Origin: a virus
Taxonomy: Duplodnaviria > Caudoviricetes
Direction: 5' to 3' (one strand)
DNA: 64,000 bases
Virus record (IMG/VR): IMGVR_UViG_3300047469_000103
Span: 236,332 to 300,331 of that record
Each line of letters begins with the position of its first letter. The first letter of the stretch is position 1. The position numbers were made by a program, and so were the translations under genes. Of the stretch, positions 36,781 to 63,741 are shown in pieces. Below the pieces are notes generated by a model. The model did not search any database and was not told the DNA's origin. It worked only from the letters and a program-made list of their open reading frames with translations.

Positions 36781-37187
36781 GTTTCATGAAATCACCGGTT
36801 AAAAATCCCACCTATCGCAACCTGCTTATGTATCGCGGTGAAATTCTGGAAGTGCATACGTTCACGCTTGAGCCGCCTGATTCGAAAAAGAGTCGGTACA
36901 GTGCGTTAGTCAGCATGCAATGGTTTCAGGATCGCGAATTGGAATTGCGCTACGGCGATAAACCGAAAAAGATTCTGCCACCATTTTACGTGGGACTGTT
37001 TGAACACAAATATTTCTTCGACAAGATGGAAGACTCCCGACGCAAACGGTGGTACGAACGCGGCGAAGAACCGGAAGACCTGTGGGCCGAGTATCCGCAT
37101 TTCCACCATGAATCATTGTGGGATTTTTACACGGCAATCGGTTACGACTATAAAGCGAAACGCTGGATTCGTGAGGAACCCAAATGA
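36777..37187 (+). CDS. hypothetical protein
   Basis: 136-aa ORF with ATGA coupling. Confidence 0.7.
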   Translation: MSFMKSPVKNPTYRNLLMYRGEILEVHTFTLEPPDSKKSRYSALVSMQWFQDRELELRYGDKPKKILPPFYVGLFEHKYFFDKMEDSRRKRWYERGEEPEDLWAEYPHFHHESLWDFYTAIGYDYKAKRWIREEPK

Positions 37188-42225: not shown

Positions 42226-42283
42226 AACTGTAAAGAAAAGGCGAGCGCACATTGTTCTCGCCTACTTTCTCGGATGAAATGAA

Positions 42284-50104: not shown

Positions 50105-51377
50105 CACCATTCACCGGCTGTACGAAAAGGGTTTCATTAAACTTTGCGACCCGACACAATTTATCAATTCGTACACGTATGAGTTTATGGGCCGGATTAC
50201 GACCCAGCGTATTACGGTTGATCCGCGCATGAAAAAAGTAGACCTGATCCGAATCGTTGATGCGGCCTGCAATGGCAGCATGGAAAACATGGTTACGCTT
50301 GCCATGCTGTATAACGTTGGCTACGGCGTTCCGTATGACGCAAGGCTGGCCGACGCATGGGCGCACCATGCAACGCTTGTTAAGGCCGCTGTAGGCTTTG
50401 AGGCGTGCTGTAAGGCGGCGAAGCAATCAGCCTTCGACAATCCGCCCGAGATTTACCCTAACAGTCTCGTGTTCCCTTGTCTGGCAATCATCGACCAGAT
50501 ACACGACCACAAACACGAAGACAAATTGCGCACCGGCACTTATGTAATGCCGCGCCTTGATGGCATTCGTGTTTATTTGATTTACCGGCACAATCCCGGC
50601 ACCGTTCCGCATTTGTACGCGGGATTCTATCGCGACGGCGAAGACACATTTATTGCGCTCGACAAATTAATCGAGTTGGGCGCCCCGCGTTATTTCGGAG
50701 AGATTCGCGGCAACGTTGTTATCAACGAATATACGCCGTTTGGTGAAAACACCATGTACGTCGTTGCAGGTACGATTTACGTTCCTGAATCGAAAGGCGG
50801 TTCCGCATTAACGGTCGATACATTCCACGAATTTTTGGCAAACAATCATCCGCCATTAACGCGTGACAAGTTCGACACCGATGCAGACGTGACCGAACTG
50901 GAAGCACTTGAGAAAACTGTAAACAGACTCAAGCGAATCCAACAACGCTTCACGGATTTGAGTAAACCAATTCCGGCAGAGCAACGCGCTGAATTACGCT
51001 CGGCAGAAACTCGCTACGCTGACTTGGCAAACGCATTAAAGGCGGCAGACCCACAAGCGGAATACGAAGCCTATATTGCATCGCTGCCTAAATCCCGGCT
51101 GCGCTTTGTAATGCACGAGCTTTACCGCTGGAACCGTGACGGATTAAAGACGGTTAAAATGAGTCGCATTATGCAGACGCATTTGCAATCGTTGGGATTC
51201 ACCAGTTTGATGCACGCAGCGCTTGAAACCGTTGGTTGGGTAGCCGACCACGAAGACGTGCCGAAAACTGTAAAGATGTTTGAGAAGACATTAGACGCAA
51301 AGGTTAACGCCTTAATCATTCAGCCAAGCACAGACGCGACCGTTCGCTTTGTGGACGTAACGAGGATTGACGTATGA
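50088..51377 (+). CDS. Sel1-repeat + degenerate DNA-ligase adenylation-domain protein
   Basis: LAMLYNVGYGVPYDARLADAW (Sel1); MPRLDGIR where KxDGxR is expected; no OB-fold or BRCT. Confidence 0.6.
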   Translation: MQMLNSTIHRLYEKGFIKLCDPTQFINSYTYEFMGRITTQRITVDPRMKKVDLIRIVDAACNGSMENMVTLAMLYNVGYGVPYDARLADAWAHHATLVKAAVGFEACCKAAKQSAFDNPPEIYPNSLVFPCLAIIDQIHDHKHEDKLRTGTYVMPRLDGIRVYLIYRHNPGTVPHLYAGFYRDGEDTFIALDKLIELGAPRYFGEIRGNVVINEYTPFGENTMYVVAGTIYVPESKGGSALTVDTFHEFLANNHPPLTRDKFDTDADVTELEALEKTVNRLKRIQQRFTDLSKPIPAEQRAELRSAETRYADLANALKAADPQAEYEAYIASLPKSRLRFVMHELYRWNRDGLKTVKMSRIMQTHLQSLGFTSLMHAALETVGWVADHEDVPKTVKMFEKTLDAKVNALIIQPSTDATVRFVDVTRIDV

Positions 51378-59696: not shown

Positions 59697-59774
59697 ATGC
59701 TCTGTGTCCGCTGCTACGAACAATCATACCACTGCACCTGTGGCCGTTATATTTTTATCGGGAAAACAAAATGA
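59697..59774 (+). CDS. 25-aa Cys-rich microprotein, absent from ORF track
   Basis: MLCVRCYEQSYHCTCGRYIFIGKTK; GAGGA RBS; ATGA overlap with the next gene. Confidence 0.55.
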   Translation: MLCVRCYEQSYHCTCGRYIFIGKTK

Positions 59775-60277
59775 CAACTCGCGTTCTGACTGACGAAGAA
59801 ATCCAGCAACGAATCGACGGCAAAGTAACCATCGTGCAGCAAGGTCGAATCCCGATGCACGAAGGTGTGCAACTGTTCGAAAAAGAATATATCGGCAAAG
59901 CAAAAAGCAGCGCCGACGCCGCACTCGCGTTGGCTGTATCCGCTTTCGAAGACGACCGCCGTGGCGAACGTGCGTATGTTCGCAGTATCGTTTTGATGGG
60001 CGTAGATTTCGAACACGTTTGCGTTCTGACTGCTGCGCTGCGTCCGGCTCCGATGACCTACAGCCAAGCGCTGGAAAAACTCAAAGATAAACAACGTCTT
60101 GCTCGCGCTGGCTGGAACGGTGCAGGCCAGTACGTTTATTTGGTCGAAGGTTTGCGTCATGGTGAAATCGAATTCGAACCTGTCTTTGTAATTCGTAACG
60201 CGCAAGGCAAACACCAACCGGGCTGGCTGGCATCTATGGGCGACCAGATGGCCGGGGATTGGGAAATCGTTAATTAA
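59771..60277 (+). CDS. tad2: DUF2829/Tad2 (Thoeris anti-defence 2)-family protein with N-terminal extension
   Basis: MTYSQALEKLK...ARAGWNGAGQYVYL...GWLASMGDQMAGDWEIV is the DUF2829 signature. Confidence 0.75.
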   Translation: MTTRVLTDEEIQQRIDGKVTIVQQGRIPMHEGVQLFEKEYIGKAKSSADAALALAVSAFEDDRRGERAYVRSIVLMGVDFEHVCVLTAALRPAPMTYSQALEKLKDKQRLARAGWNGAGQYVYLVEGLRHGEIEFEPVFVIRNAQGKHQPGWLASMGDQMAGDWEIVN

Positions 60278-60283
60278 TCGAAT

Positions 60284-61312
60284 TTGATGGAGGGAAGAAT
60301 GTCTGCTGATAAAAACATGACCGGGGAACAGATTCAGCAGATTATGGATATGTTTCTGTACAAGGCTCTAGAACCGCTGATTCTTTTCACGAATATTTTC
60401 GATGCGCAGATTGAATATTTGCTCGTGCTGATCGCAACCAACCGGAAGCGCAAACTCAGTTCCCTTGACCGGGGAGTGGTCGTGGAAAAACTCGCGGCTT
60501 ATCTCTCCGTTTCTGATCGTCGGCAGAAATTCGAATTCATCCGTGAAGCGCGACTAGAGCGGTACTTTATCCATCGGTTCATCAACGAATTCCTGTCGGA
60601 TAACATGGACTACATTGAGAAATATAAAAAGTTTCTCACTGATCCGTCGCGTCCGGCACAAGTTGAGCTAGATCGCATCGCCACGCAAGTCGGGCATTGC
60701 AGTCGCGCAGACCTATACAAAACTCTGAAACTTGCGAACGCATATCTCGGACGTTTTTATTCGTACCGTAACACCGTGATCGGCCACTACATCAAAAACA
60801 GTAACAAGCTGGCGAAGGCGCACGTCACCAACACGCACAGCAATTCCAGTTACAAAGATTTGGTGCAGTCGATTCTAAAATCCATCATCACGGCGCTGGA
60901 TAAATACGACAGTCGAAAAGGTGCGCTCACTTCTTACATCCAGACATGGGCGAAGAACGCGACCACGACGACGAAAGAACACGAATACGGAATTGCATAC
61001 ACGATTCCACAAACCCAACGGAAGAAACTTTTCGAAGGGAAAAGCACCGAGGTGAATTACGGCGTAAGTCTTGATGCTTTATTTGGCGATGACGACGAAG
61101 ACGGCAGCATGGCGATGCACAGCATTGTTAGCCAGAATCCAGAACTCGATTACGACATTGAAAAGCAACAGGGCGTCACGCTTGTGCAACGTCTCGCGAA
61201 GAAAGTAGACCCGCTGGGGATCGCCCGCTTGAGTTTGGAAATTGGTGAATATTTCTCTCCTTACGAAAAGCTGGTAATGCGTAATCAAATGGCGGAAGAA
61301 GGGCTGCTTTAA
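60284..61312 (+). CDS. phage sigma70-like factor
   Basis: Region-2-like DLVQSILKSIITALDKYDSRKGALTSYIQTWAKNA; region-3-like VSLD. Confidence 0.75.
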   Translation: MMEGRMSADKNMTGEQIQQIMDMFLYKALEPLILFTNIFDAQIEYLLVLIATNRKRKLSSLDRGVVVEKLAAYLSVSDRRQKFEFIREARLERYFIHRFINEFLSDNMDYIEKYKKFLTDPSRPAQVELDRIATQVGHCSRADLYKTLKLANAYLGRFYSYRNTVIGHYIKNSNKLAKAHVTNTHSNSSYKDLVQSILKSIITALDKYDSRKGALTSYIQTWAKNATTTTKEHEYGIAYTIPQTQRKKLFEGKSTEVNYGVSLDALFGDDDEDGSMAMHSIVSQNPELDYDIEKQQGVTLVQRLAKKVDPLGIARLSLEIGEYFSPYEKLVMRNQMAEEGLL

Positions 61313-61366
61313 AAACTGTAAAGAACCTACATAGAAACGATGGGCCTTTACCCACGCTTCTAACTG

Positions 61367-61488
61367 TTAGGTTTGTCTGGTAATGCGGCCTCGCCCTCAA
61401 GGCTAAACGGTGTACTGCTTGCAACGCATCCCCCGCGCATCCTCACGCGGTTTTGTTTAGCGAGTACACGACCAGATGAACCGCCTAA
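61367..61488 (+). ncRNA. candidate pseudoknotted ncRNA / ribozyme-like element
   Basis: 11-bp closing stem plus crossing 7-bp helices; 45 nt downstream of ACTGTAAA at 61315. Confidence 0.5.
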
Positions 61489-61505
61489 TTAAAAGTGAGA
61501 AATTC

Positions 61506-61673
61506 ATGACGCAATCAAATGTTGCCGTGGTAGATTTCAAACAGCCTCGCGATGCGGATGGAAATATTATCCTGCACCCGAGCGTGAAAGAGCTTGCAAA
61601 GCAAATCGAAGATAAAGCCTACAGTGACGCGCTTGCAAAAGTCATTGCTAAAGCAGAAGAATCGAACTGGTAA
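61506..61673 (+). CDS. small hypothetical protein
   Basis: Start MTQSNV after GTGAG. Confidence 0.65.
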   Translation: MTQSNVAVVDFKQPRDADGNIILHPSVKELAKQIEDKAYSDALAKVIAKAEESNW

Positions 61674-61706
61674 AATAAACCGGTCAAACACATATGGAGA
61701 TTGGCA

Positions 61707-62384
61707 ATGAGTGAAAGCAAAGAAAGCAATTTGATTTCGCACGCTCGCCGGGAACTCGCAATTCTGGAAGCGCAAGCCGCTGCGGATACCGAAGACCCGG
61801 CTGGCTGTCTGGAAATGCAACAGCACATGACTGCGGATGTTCTCAAGGTTCTGGAAGCAATCAACACGACCGGCCAATCTGGCGGAAGCATCGGTTATTT
61901 TCTGAATCTTGTTCGTCGTCTGGCTTTGCAACAAAACGTGGCGCCTTTGATTGGTGATGATGCCGAATGGTTTTATCACGGTAAAGAAATGGGTGACATG
62001 TACCAGAACAAACGCAACGGTGCAGTCTTCAAAGATGCCACCGATGGCCGCGCCTATTACCTCGACGGTTATGTGACTGTCGATCCTAACGGTTGCAGTT
62101 ATACCGGTGGCAATGGTGGTCGCTGCTACATTGAATTTCCGTACACGCCGGAAACGCATTACATTCCGCGCATGGAACTGCTTGAAAACGATCCAGATTT
62201 TCCACACTGGAGTCGTCCTGCTTTGGTCACAGAAAATTATCTGTTCGATACGAAGCAAGCGGTTTTGGATTTCTATGCAACGCACGGAATTACCCAACCT
62301 GAAGACGCGGACGAAGATCGCGCCGAGCCACTGGCCCGTGCGATTGCAAATCCTGATGATGCACCTGTGCGAGAAGCGGAATAA
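61707..62384 (+). CDS. conserved phage hypothetical protein
   Basis: SNLISHARREL...GQSGGS...PLIGDDAEW...YQNKR...VFKD pattern recurrent in phages (from memory). Confidence 0.75.
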   Translation: MSESKESNLISHARRELAILEAQAAADTEDPAGCLEMQQHMTADVLKVLEAINTTGQSGGSIGYFLNLVRRLALQQNVAPLIGDDAEWFYHGKEMGDMYQNKRNGAVFKDATDGRAYYLDGYVTVDPNGCSYTGGNGGRCYIEFPYTPETHYIPRMELLENDPDFPHWSRPALVTENYLFDTKQAVLDFYATHGITQPEDADEDRAEPLARAIANPDDAPVREAE

Positions 62385-62515
62385 TGAGTTGGTTTCCCTG
62401 CTTGGTTTTGCTCGTTGACTCCGACGAAACACTGATCGCAAAAACTGTAAACGATATACCGAATGGTGCAACCTTTCGCGTATTGAAAAAACGAATTAAC
62501 GAGGAAAATTCATGA
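62384..62515 (+). CDS. 43-aa microprotein, absent from ORF track
   Basis: MSWFPCLVLLVDSDETLIAKTVNDIPNGATFRVLKKRINEENS; TAATG overlap upstream and ATGA overlap downstream. Confidence 0.55.
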   Translation: MSWFPCLVLLVDSDETLIAKTVNDIPNGATFRVLKKRINEENS

Positions 62516-63741
62516 GTGCTTCTTTCAAGGGCTTTGGTTCGATCAAGACCAACAGCCGTAACGATTCCGTCCGTCTGGACGAAGTGATCGACATTATCAA
62601 ATGGGTTGATAAAAAGTGGGTTACGATTCGCGTCCTGCCTCTCGCCCCGCTGCAAGTGCGTCAAGCGTGGATCAAACTCTACGCCGGTAAAGAAAAGAAA
62701 GAAATTTCGATTCCGCGTTATGTCGTAAACTTCGATCCGTCGAATCCAGATACTCCGAAAAAAGGCGTGCGTTGCCCGTACTCGGAACTGGTAACTGACA
62801 AAGACGGCCCGGTACGCGTTTCCGACTTCTGGCTGTTCAACGTCATTGACCGCGACATGCAGGAAGAAGGCCCACCGCGTAAATCGTCGAAGCCTACAAA
62901 AGCTGAAGCGAAATCTGGTCACAAAGATATCACTTCCGAAACGTGGACTCCGGTTCGTGTTGCACGTTTCACCATGACTTCGATTCTGCGTTTGCAGGAA
63001 CTGTCGGAAGACAACCTCGTCAAAGACAAAAAGACCGGCAAAAAAGCGCAGTTCGACGCGTCCGATGCCCGTTACGGTTTCGACGTAAAAGTGAAGTTCA
63101 AGAAAGATGCACCGGGTACTGATAAGTACAGCATCGACAAGGCCGATGGCGCCGCTGCACTGACGAAAGAAGAACAAGGTTATTTGACTTGGAATCTTTC
63201 TGAAGAACTTCTGGACGCAACCGGTCGCATGACTGAAAAGCAAGCGCTGGAAGACGTTAAGCGTATGGAACTGGTCGGCGGTAATACGCTGGACGATGAC
63301 GACGATGACGACGACAAGCCGAAGAAAAAAGGCAAGGGTAAATCCCGTTCGCTCGACGACGATGACGACGAAGACGAAAAGCCGAAGAAGAAAAAGAAAA
63401 AGCCTTTCGACGACGATGACGACGAAGACGAAAAGCCAAAGAAAAAGAAAAAGAAATCTTCGGACGATGATGACGACGAAGATGAAAAGCCGAAAAAGAA
63501 GCTGAAGAAAAAGTCCAAGTCGGATGATGATGAAGACGAAAAGCCGAAGAAGAAGTTGAAGAAAAAGTCCAAGTCCGACGATGACGACGAAGACGAAAAG
63601 CCAAAGAAGAAAAAGAAATCTTCGAAAGACGACGACGAAAAGCCGAAGAAGAAAAAGGCCAAGGTCGAAGAAAAGAAAGGCGGTGCTAAAAAGAAGACCG
63701 CAAAAAAGGGTAAAAAGAAGAACGCATGGGATGATGAATAA
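62512..63741 (+). CDS. T4 gp32-like single-stranded DNA-binding protein with long D/K block tail
   Basis: TIRVLP...WIK...CPY...FNVIDR...GFDVKVK...Y pattern of gp32-type SSB; ends AWDDE; next to probable recA. Confidence 0.7.
   Translation: MSASFKGFGSIKTNSRNDSVRLDEVIDIIKWVDKKWVTIRVLPLAPLQVRQAWIKLYAGKEKKEISIPRYVVNFDPSNPDTPKKGVRCPYSELVTDKDGPVRVSDFWLFNVIDRDMQEEGPPRKSSKPTKAEAKSGHKDITSETWTPVRVARFTMTSILRLQELSEDNLVKDKKTGKKAQFDASDARYGFDVKVKFKKDAPGTDKYSIDKADGAAALTKEEQGYLTWNLSEELLDATGRMTEKQALEDVKRMELVGGNTLDDDDDDDDKPKKKGKGKSRSLDDDDDEDEKPKKKKKKPFDDDDDEDEKPKKKKKKSSDDDDDEDEKPKKKLKKKSKSDDDEDEKPKKKLKKKSKSDDDDEDEKPKKKKKSSKDDDEKPKKKKAKVEEKKGGAKKKTAKKGKKKNAWDDE
63296..63660 (+). repeat. seven imperfect repeats encoding D(3-8)(E)-KPKKK blocks
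   Basis: Recurring gacgatgacgacgaagacgaaaagccgaagaag units. Confidence 0.85.

Follow-up and report, generated by a model that had tools for sequence, protein, structure and literature searches.

What kind of element separates the sigma factor gene of a Lu11-like jumbo phage from the small operon behind it? The window, a stretch of 64,000 nucleotides of viral DNA, is part of the genome of such a phage, its sigma factor being 64% identical to that of Lu11 and 69% identical to that of Pseudomonas phage HRDY3. At 61366-61489, on the plus strand, it carries a structured RNA element of about 120 bases. A first-pass annotation had described this element as a non-coding RNA with crossing helices and twister-like hallmarks, located downstream of a promoter-type motif. 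The last point is confirmed, a ACTGTAAA box lying directly upstream. The motif (A)ACTGTAAA is over-represented, strand-specific and situated shortly upstream of genes, and 12 exact copies of AAACTGTAAA, co-oriented with the genes, occur in the window as compared to 0.14 expected. The box is found behind the sigma factor gene in nearly all relatives. In the GenBank record of Lu11 (JQ768459), the same motif, at the same place relative to the sigma factor gene, is annotated as a 'putative middle/late promoter'. We infer that the box AAACTGTAAA acts as a promoter. In Lu11 and in most relatives, the start codon follows the box after about 20-45 nt, whereas here about 165 nt of structured RNA lie between them.

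The first gene behind this leader encodes a 55-amino-acid protein with a VVDFK.PRD..G motif. Its product matched no Pfam or PHROG family, and a protein search with it returned three close clusters only. The gene occurs in most Lu11-like relatives, where it invariably comes next behind the sigma factor gene, and is missing in L005, L032, L034 and L070. The second gene of the unit belongs to the Tad3 family. Tad3 has been described as inhibiting type I Thoeris through binding of ThsB (PMC13728456). The features of the region are collected in Table 1.

Table 1. Features of the leader region and of the genes around it. Positions are those of the window; stems are given as predicted.
Feature	Position	Strand	Remarks
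Tad2-like gene (DUF2829)	59771-60277		upstream of the sigma factor gene
Phage sigma factor	60284-61312		phrog_17569, E = 5e-131; Pfam Sigma70_r2
Putative promoter box AAACTGTAAA	61313-61322	+	overlaps the sigma-gene stop codon (TAA 61310-12)
5′-proximal imperfect hairpin UAGAA..CG..UGGG / CCCA..CG..UUCUA	61332-61362	+	separate, 5′ of the junction in the whole-leader MFE structure; first part of the insert
Conserved block, three-way-junction RNA including outer UUAGG/CCUAA	61366-61489	+	z = -3.0; 122/123 identity in L002 and L037
P1, 5′ strand	61370-61381	+	pairs with 61471-61482, 12 bp including U-G and G-U; paired in 100% of variants
UGCG in J1/2	61384-61387	+	sole conserved letters of J1/2; complementary to CGCA 61425-28 (P3 internal loop)
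P2 hairpin GGCCU CGCCCUCA AGGCU	61387-61404	+	stem 61387-91 / 61400-04; loop CGCCCUCA; MFE and RNAalifold
J2/3 AAACG	61405-61409	+	invariant
P3 arm	61410-61469	+	4 double compensatory changes, 0 broken pairs
P3	61410-19 / 61459-69	+	G61462 bulged
P3a	61421-24 / 61453-56	+	
P3 internal loop CGCAUCCC	61425-32	+	invariant
P3b CCGCG / CGCGG	61433-37 / 61446-50	+	loop CAUCCUCA 61438-45
P1, 3′ strand	61471-61482	+	partner of 61370-61381; covariation test
A/U-rich single-stranded spacer	61489-61505	+	Shine-Dalgarno-like GUGAG 61495-99, 6 nt before ATG
55-aa gene, VVDFK.PRD... family	61506-61673	+	first gene behind the leader
Tad3-family gene (N-terminal domain)	61707-62384	+	Pfam PF25185 Tad3, E = 1.6e-28; second gene of the unit
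SSB	62512-63741		downstream of the Tad3-family gene

A 122-nt stretch at this locus is predicted to fold into a nested three-way junction with a minimum free energy (MFE) of -43.1 kcal/mol. As compared to dinucleotide shuffles, this fold has a z-score of -3.0, one of 200 shuffles being equally stable. The fold of the opposite strand is weaker (z = -1.4). The junction strands are AAUGC, AAACG and G. All stems listed in the first-pass annotation lie where it had placed them, and several are recovered in this structure. These are the closing stem, formed by GTTTGTCTGGT at 61371-81 and ACCAGATGAAC at 61471-81, the helix of GTGTACT (61410-16) with AGTACAC (61463-69), and the hairpin of CCGCG (61433-37) with CGCGG (61446-50). 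The words of the outer extension, TTAGG (61367-71) and CCTAA (61484-88), are present as well. A further pairing, of ATGCG (61383-87) with CGCAT (61425-29), fared less well: both words are present, but only four pairs, UGCG with CGCA, are conserved, and these show no covariation. A tertiary contact of 4 bp between UGCG and CGCA is nevertheless possible, judging from the complementarity. In the MFE structure of the whole leader, the ribosome-binding site of the first gene is open and not occluded. Pairing in cis of the CCUCA loops with the Shine-Dalgarno sequence of that gene would involve only 4-5 bp and is poorly kept in the diverged homologue L027. Therefore, simple sequestration in cis is a weak explanation.

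The pairing was then compared across an alignment of the window with the related loci L002, L037 and L027, using 31 pairs of P1, P3, P3a and P3b. L027 is the diverged member of this set. Its sigma factor is 87% identical to that of the window's phage, and its element shows 98 identities in 129 aligned columns, about one quarter of the positions being different. All 31 tested pairs are canonical in all aligned variants. Both sides have changed in five pairs, and one side, in a compatible manner, in four pairs, in a comparison that consists of two deep variants only, that is, of one independent contrast. The five double compensatory changes between L027 and the window lineage are C-G to U-A in P1, A-U to G-C, C-G to U-A and C-G to A-U in P3, and A-U to U-G in P3a. 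One-sided changes in P1 are G-U to G-C and, twice, U-A to U-G. The 62 paired positions contain 13 substitutions, and pairing is kept by all of them. None of 500 column shuffles matched the observed pairing and compensation. When the 3′ partners were slid by 1-3 columns as a control, only 31-46% were paired, with at most one double change. RNAalifold gave the same nested fold as a consensus. Independent folding of L027 gave the same architecture (z = -2.9). Read from the minus strand, the wobble pairs would turn into A-C mismatches, and the fold of that strand is weaker; therefore, the RNA is read from the plus strand. Overall, each stem substitution being compensated, very few sequences provide clean comparative support. 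As judged from this substitution pattern, the data show that an RNA-level fold (P1, P2, P3-P3a-P3b) is under selection on the plus strand.

In L027, the closing stem and the GTGTACT/AGTACAC helix are kept with compensatory changes, and the CCGCG hairpin (P3b) is invariant. P2 is misaligned by MAFFT and was compared through the fold of L027 itself. Its stem has an entirely different sequence there (GG-A-UAGU / ACUA-G-CC), and the 8-nt loop retains CCCUC(A), corresponding to the CCCUCA motif of the P2 loop in the window. The terminal loop of P3b changes from CAUCCUCA in the window to ACCCCUCA in L027, with CCUCA kept. Across the variants, YCCUCA is thereby found in both 8-nt terminal loops. J2/3 (AAACG), the internal loop CGCAUCCC, the bulged G and UGCG are also invariant. 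J1/2 changes outside UGCG, which is the same in the window, L002, L037 and L027. The 5′ hairpin of L027 has the same architecture as that of the window; its middle stem differs (UAAU/AUUA), and an A-U pair of the outer stem has become G-U.

The crossing helix did not withstand this comparison. GCTAAAC (61402-08) had been proposed to pair with GTTTAGC (61455-61) across the GTGTACT/AGTACAC helix, in the pseudoknot order A-B-A′-B′. The complementarity is indeed a perfect 7-mer in the window lineage, but two of the seven pairs are mismatched in L027. Moreover, the 3′ strand belongs to a covarying nested helix. Its G to U change is compensated in the nested pairing of GCU (61417-19) with AGC (61459-61), which becomes GAU/AUC in L027 (C-G to A-U). 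When forced as a nested alternative, the crossing helix costs +3.7 kcal/mol in the window and +9.4 kcal/mol in L027. The pseudoknot was therefore rejected on the basis of the L027 mismatches, the nested compensation and the energy cost. It would probably also be sterically unfavourable, with single-nucleotide connectors beside two 7-bp helices. A residual AAAC/GUUU complementarity is present in both variants and possibly corresponds to a transient alternative.

Among the close relatives, the block 61366-61488 is nearly frozen, with 122 of 123 positions identical to the window in L002 as well as in L037. For the last 600 nt of the sigma factor gene, identity to the window is 92% in L002 and 93% in L037. 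The corresponding values are 91% and 88% for the 5′ hairpin, which equals the flank rate, 76% and 82% for the spacer, and 80% and 89% for the small gene. The edges of the frozen tract coincide exactly with the outer UUAGG/CCUAA, and both immediate flanks diverge. At the flank rate, about 10 substitutions would be expected in the block, as compared to the one observed (Poisson estimate, P < 0.001). Towards L027, the element diverges about like its flanks (76% identity for the element and 81% for the flanks). On this account, the near-identity in the close group could result from recent block exchange or episodic change rather than from selection. A coding reading was rejected. A 39-aa ORF (61373-61492) spans the element, but its frame is interrupted in L027 and the shared part carries mostly non-synonymous changes, showing that the constraint is not coding.

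The element lies within a lineage-specific insertion of about 165 nt, between the box AAACTGTAAA (61313) and the ribosome-binding site of the 55-aa gene. The insert, consisting of hairpin and junction, was found only in L001/L040 (the window's phage), L002/L017, L037, the truncated L038 and L027-L030. The sigma factors of L002/L017, L037 and L038 belong to the same 90%-identity cluster as that of the window, L002 being 96% identical; those of L027-L030 are 87% identical. The insert is lacking in 13 of 15 IMG/VR relatives, in eight metagenome relatives and in ENA/Logan relatives with a sigma identity of at most 83%; in all of these, the next start codon follows the box within about 20-90 nt. 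In the relatives without the insert, the box AAACTGTAAA is directly followed by the same kind of Shine-Dalgarno sequence and ATG, belonging to the small gene or, if this is missing, to the Tad3-family gene. L039 has a sigma factor of the window's 90%-identity cluster, yet it has no insert and carries another small-gene allele, which points to a mosaic boundary at the promoter. In a comparison of L039:1100-1340 with 61280-61680 of the window, the breakpoint falls at the promoter box, and the small-gene allele of L039 is common to L031 (sigma identity 83%).

Searches for further copies covered the phage, its relatives and public collections. No second copy or relative was detected by blastn within the window and all loci. 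A distant-mode search of INPHARED phages gave chance fragments only. Exact and gapped pattern scans of IMG/VR returned the same two phage contigs, plus chance matches in unrelated high-GC phages. A covariance model, R1, revealed no further copy over the IMG/VR pattern-scan loci, nor over the window, 23 related loci and the complete genomes of three relatives; the best additional match (E = 0.48) is located within coding sequence, and its fold is not more stable than those of shuffled sequences. A pattern scan of GTDB genomes for a host origin gave two chance matches in Verrucomicrobiota MAGs, with the short hairpin only. In a metagenome scan with the sigma factor, only relatives with at most 69% identity were found, none of them with the insert. 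Over the collections covered, these searches show an insert present in a single copy and restricted to one sub-lineage of Lu11-like jumbo phages.

How might such an RNA act? We consider it somewhat more probable than not that the element is a cis-acting regulatory or stabilising leader with a partner acting in trans. It would represent a new clade-restricted structured leader RNA, without an Rfam family, of the broad kind of phage mRNA leader RNAs. The element would form the core of a 5′ leader of about 165 nt, made of the 5′ hairpin and a 113-nt three-way junction. The mRNA, transcribed from the phage's own middle/late-type box (61313), would encode the 55-aa and Tad3-family proteins. Its start is expected a few bases after 61322, with the 5′ hairpin and the P1-closed junction forming the 5′ end. 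Structured 5′ ends generally protect bacterial mRNAs from 5′-end-dependent decay, and the 5′ hairpin and closed P1 may protect this 5′ end. The twin YCCUCA loops, the internal loop CGCAUCCC and the invariant junction letters would offer a recognition surface to the partner. This partner might be a protein, possibly a dimer, or a G-rich RNA segment resembling a Shine-Dalgarno sequence (UGAGG), and its binding would set the stability and/or the translation of the downstream operon. Recognition by a specific partner, rather than mere stability, is suggested by the paired loop motifs, by the invariance of the internal loop and by the nearly frozen sequence. UGAGGA-type Shine-Dalgarno sequences are common in the phage, several being located in the window, for example at 37172, 56601 and 59685. 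Since most relatives carry the same genes without the leader, it appears dispensable for the operon as such.

The T4 gene 32 leader pseudoknot and translational operators are examples of phage 5′-leader RNAs that likewise lie between a promoter and the gene that opens an operon. The element also shares with them a fold kept by compensating mutations, the lack of an independent terminator and, presumably, an action in cis on stability or translation. Unlike them, it folds as a three-way junction bearing twin CCUCA loops and is restricted to one sub-lineage.

The two C-rich loops are conserved and have no intramolecular partner, as would also be expected of a trans-acting sRNA processed from the transcript. 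Cleavage in the spacer at 61489-94 would free the hairpin plus junction, whose CCUCA loops would then base-pair to ribosome-binding sites of the UGAGG type in host or phage mRNAs. RNase E uses single-stranded A/U-rich sites such as the stretch after P1, and a site of this type indeed stands right behind P1. UGAGGA-type Shine-Dalgarno sequences precede several window genes, and pairing with a conserved target would agree with the near-frozen sequence. Among the sRNAs that target Shine-Dalgarno sequences with C-rich loops, those of the RsaE/RoxS type likewise expose several such loops, complementary to GGAG/GAGG-type ribosome-binding sites. Unlike these sRNAs, the element is a leader without its own terminator, comes from a phage and shows no homology to them. 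No terminator follows the element, the only hairpin of this kind that was found being internal to it, and a 3′ end would consequently have to be produced by processing. In addition, the loops share only 5 nt across the variants, and the rest of the window shows no enrichment of hairpin loops with CCUCA. We regard a processed sRNA as rather unlikely. A genome-wide regulon of CCUCA hairpins was also considered and was set aside for the lack of enrichment in the window.

Covarying stems around the invariant letters AAACG, CGCAUCCC and UGCG correspond to the generic pattern of an aptamer. Together with the position in a 5′ leader and the possible 4-bp tertiary pairing UGCG/CGCA, they would agree with a riboswitch-type sensor whose junction binds a small molecule and tunes the small gene and the Tad3-family gene. 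We hold this improbable. No Rfam aptamer matched even at E <= 10, no expression platform is evident, the Shine-Dalgarno sequence being open in the MFE structure, and, in contrast to most riboswitches, the family is very small and limited to one clade. In the window lineage, a terminator-like hairpin with a U-run does occur inside the element, where the P3b hairpin CCGCG..CGCGG is followed by UUUUGUUUAG. It is weak, with a stem of only 5 bp, and in L027 the tract reads UGGUGUUUAU, the changed bases pairing in P3a as compensations. An intrinsic terminator or attenuator was rejected on these grounds. It is very improbable that the junction senses an infection-time small molecule, for instance a host nucleotide-derived immune signal, and, only when they are needed, switches on the small gene and the anti-Thoeris gene of the Tad3 family. 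If true, a phage anti-defence operon would for the first time be seen under control of the riboswitch type.

The distribution of the insert could also be taken to mean that it has no function, being a scar left behind by recombination or by a small mobile element, or that it is a signal at the DNA level, its close identity being due to recent exchange. Indeed, presence and absence are polymorphic within the same 90%-identity sigma cluster, as L039 illustrates, and most relatives do without the insert. Against this, all 13 substitutions in the 62 paired positions keep pairing, and the G-U pairs make the signal strand-specific, hence a signal of RNA. The frozen tract is exactly the folded unit, with diverging flanks. 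The insert has no terminal repeats, and no second copy was found in the window, in the genomes of three relatives or in the IMG/VR and GTDB scans. We judge a functionless insert or a DNA-level signal to be quite improbable.

The twister likeness remains to be considered. In twister ribozymes, two pseudoknots stabilise the internal loops, a conserved U-A cleavage step adjoins P1 and at least 10 active-site nucleotides are strongly conserved (PMC8495972). The element resembles them in its size, in a closing P1 followed by UAAUGC (window lineage only) and in a C-rich terminal loop. However, twister is built as P1-P2-P4 with internal loops, and the element as a three-way junction. No conserved double pseudoknot was found in the element, the possible UGCG/CGCA pairing being a single 4-bp contact. 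The letters UAAUGCGGC and GAGU, which had been taken as twister hallmarks, are replaced by UUUCUGCGG and GAAC in L027, the change from GAGU to GAAC being within a covarying stem. The sequence after P1 is UAAUGC in the window, UAUUGC in L002 and L037 and UUUCUGC in L027, and the U-A step adjoining P1 is U-U in L027. Using cmscan with Rfam 15, no match at the gathering score was obtained in the whole window. At E <= 10, the region 61200-61650 (451 nt) gave two unrelated chance matches only, and no ribozyme or riboswitch family. By these comparisons, the element is not a twister ribozyme or a member of another Rfam family. A self-cleaving ribozyme, as a twister variant or a new class, is extremely improbable: the compact fold, the possible tertiary pairing, the very high conservation in close relatives and the superficial resemblance to twister seen in the window lineage (P1-UAAUGCGGC, a C-rich loop) would suit it, but there is no match to twister-P1/P3/P5, twister-sister, hammerhead, pistol, hatchet, HDV or other Rfam models (E <= 10, 451 nt), the crossing helix and the U-A step are not conserved and a hammerhead core is lacking.

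Other candidates were rejected in the same way. The junction strands do not contain the hammerhead core CUGANGA...GAAA, and no Rfam hammerhead model matched. A sponge for CsrA/RsmA on the minus strand, with GGA loops, is contradicted by the weak fold (z = -1.4), by G-U pairs becoming A-C and by GGA not being conserved in L027. A lambda boxA-like word, CGCUUCUAA (61355-63), is not conserved in L002 or L027. A retron ncRNA, considered for the long terminal stem, was dismissed because the element is not followed by a reverse transcriptase gene.

Jumbo phages have hardly been explored for structured regulatory RNAs. Here, the sharply delimited near-frozen block and the two identical loop motifs point to a specific partner. 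The operon headed by the element includes a gene of the Tad3 family (Thoeris inhibitor), with a Tad2-like gene and the phage sigma factor gene nearby, and from this position the element could be a handle on the timing or dosing of anti-defence genes. Because close relatives differ in its presence or absence, they provide a ready-made natural experiment. If the element is merely a stabilising leader, it would be an ordinary, though well-documented, feature.

Some observations were made on the neighbouring genes and promoters. The Tad2-like and Tad3-family genes flank the sigma factor gene, and this order is kept in many relatives (L027, L032, L034, L037, L069 and L070), which suggests, from gene order and family assignment, a conserved anti-Thoeris pair around the sigma factor gene of Lu11-like phages. 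A 43-aa ORF (62384-62515), overlapping the Tad3-family gene at its stop codon, is probably real, since it recurs as a called gene of 43 residues in L027, L028, L037, L039 and L040. Hairpins are also found about 5-15 nt behind AAACTGTAAA boxes at 42227, 50916 and 62444, for example GGCGAG..CTCGCC at 42240 and ACTCAA..TTGAGT at 50930. A hairpin soon after the box is likewise seen in the leaders of SSB in L004 and L006. A 5′-terminal hairpin may be a general feature of mRNAs from this promoter class. Finally, in L005 (4020-4125), where the small gene is missing, the Tad3-family gene has a leader of about 90 nt with a terminator-like hairpin, GCCGGG..CTCGGC followed by ATTTTGG. This hairpin, which has no sequence relationship with the leader element of the window, lies between the promoter box and the start codon, where it could act as an attenuator.
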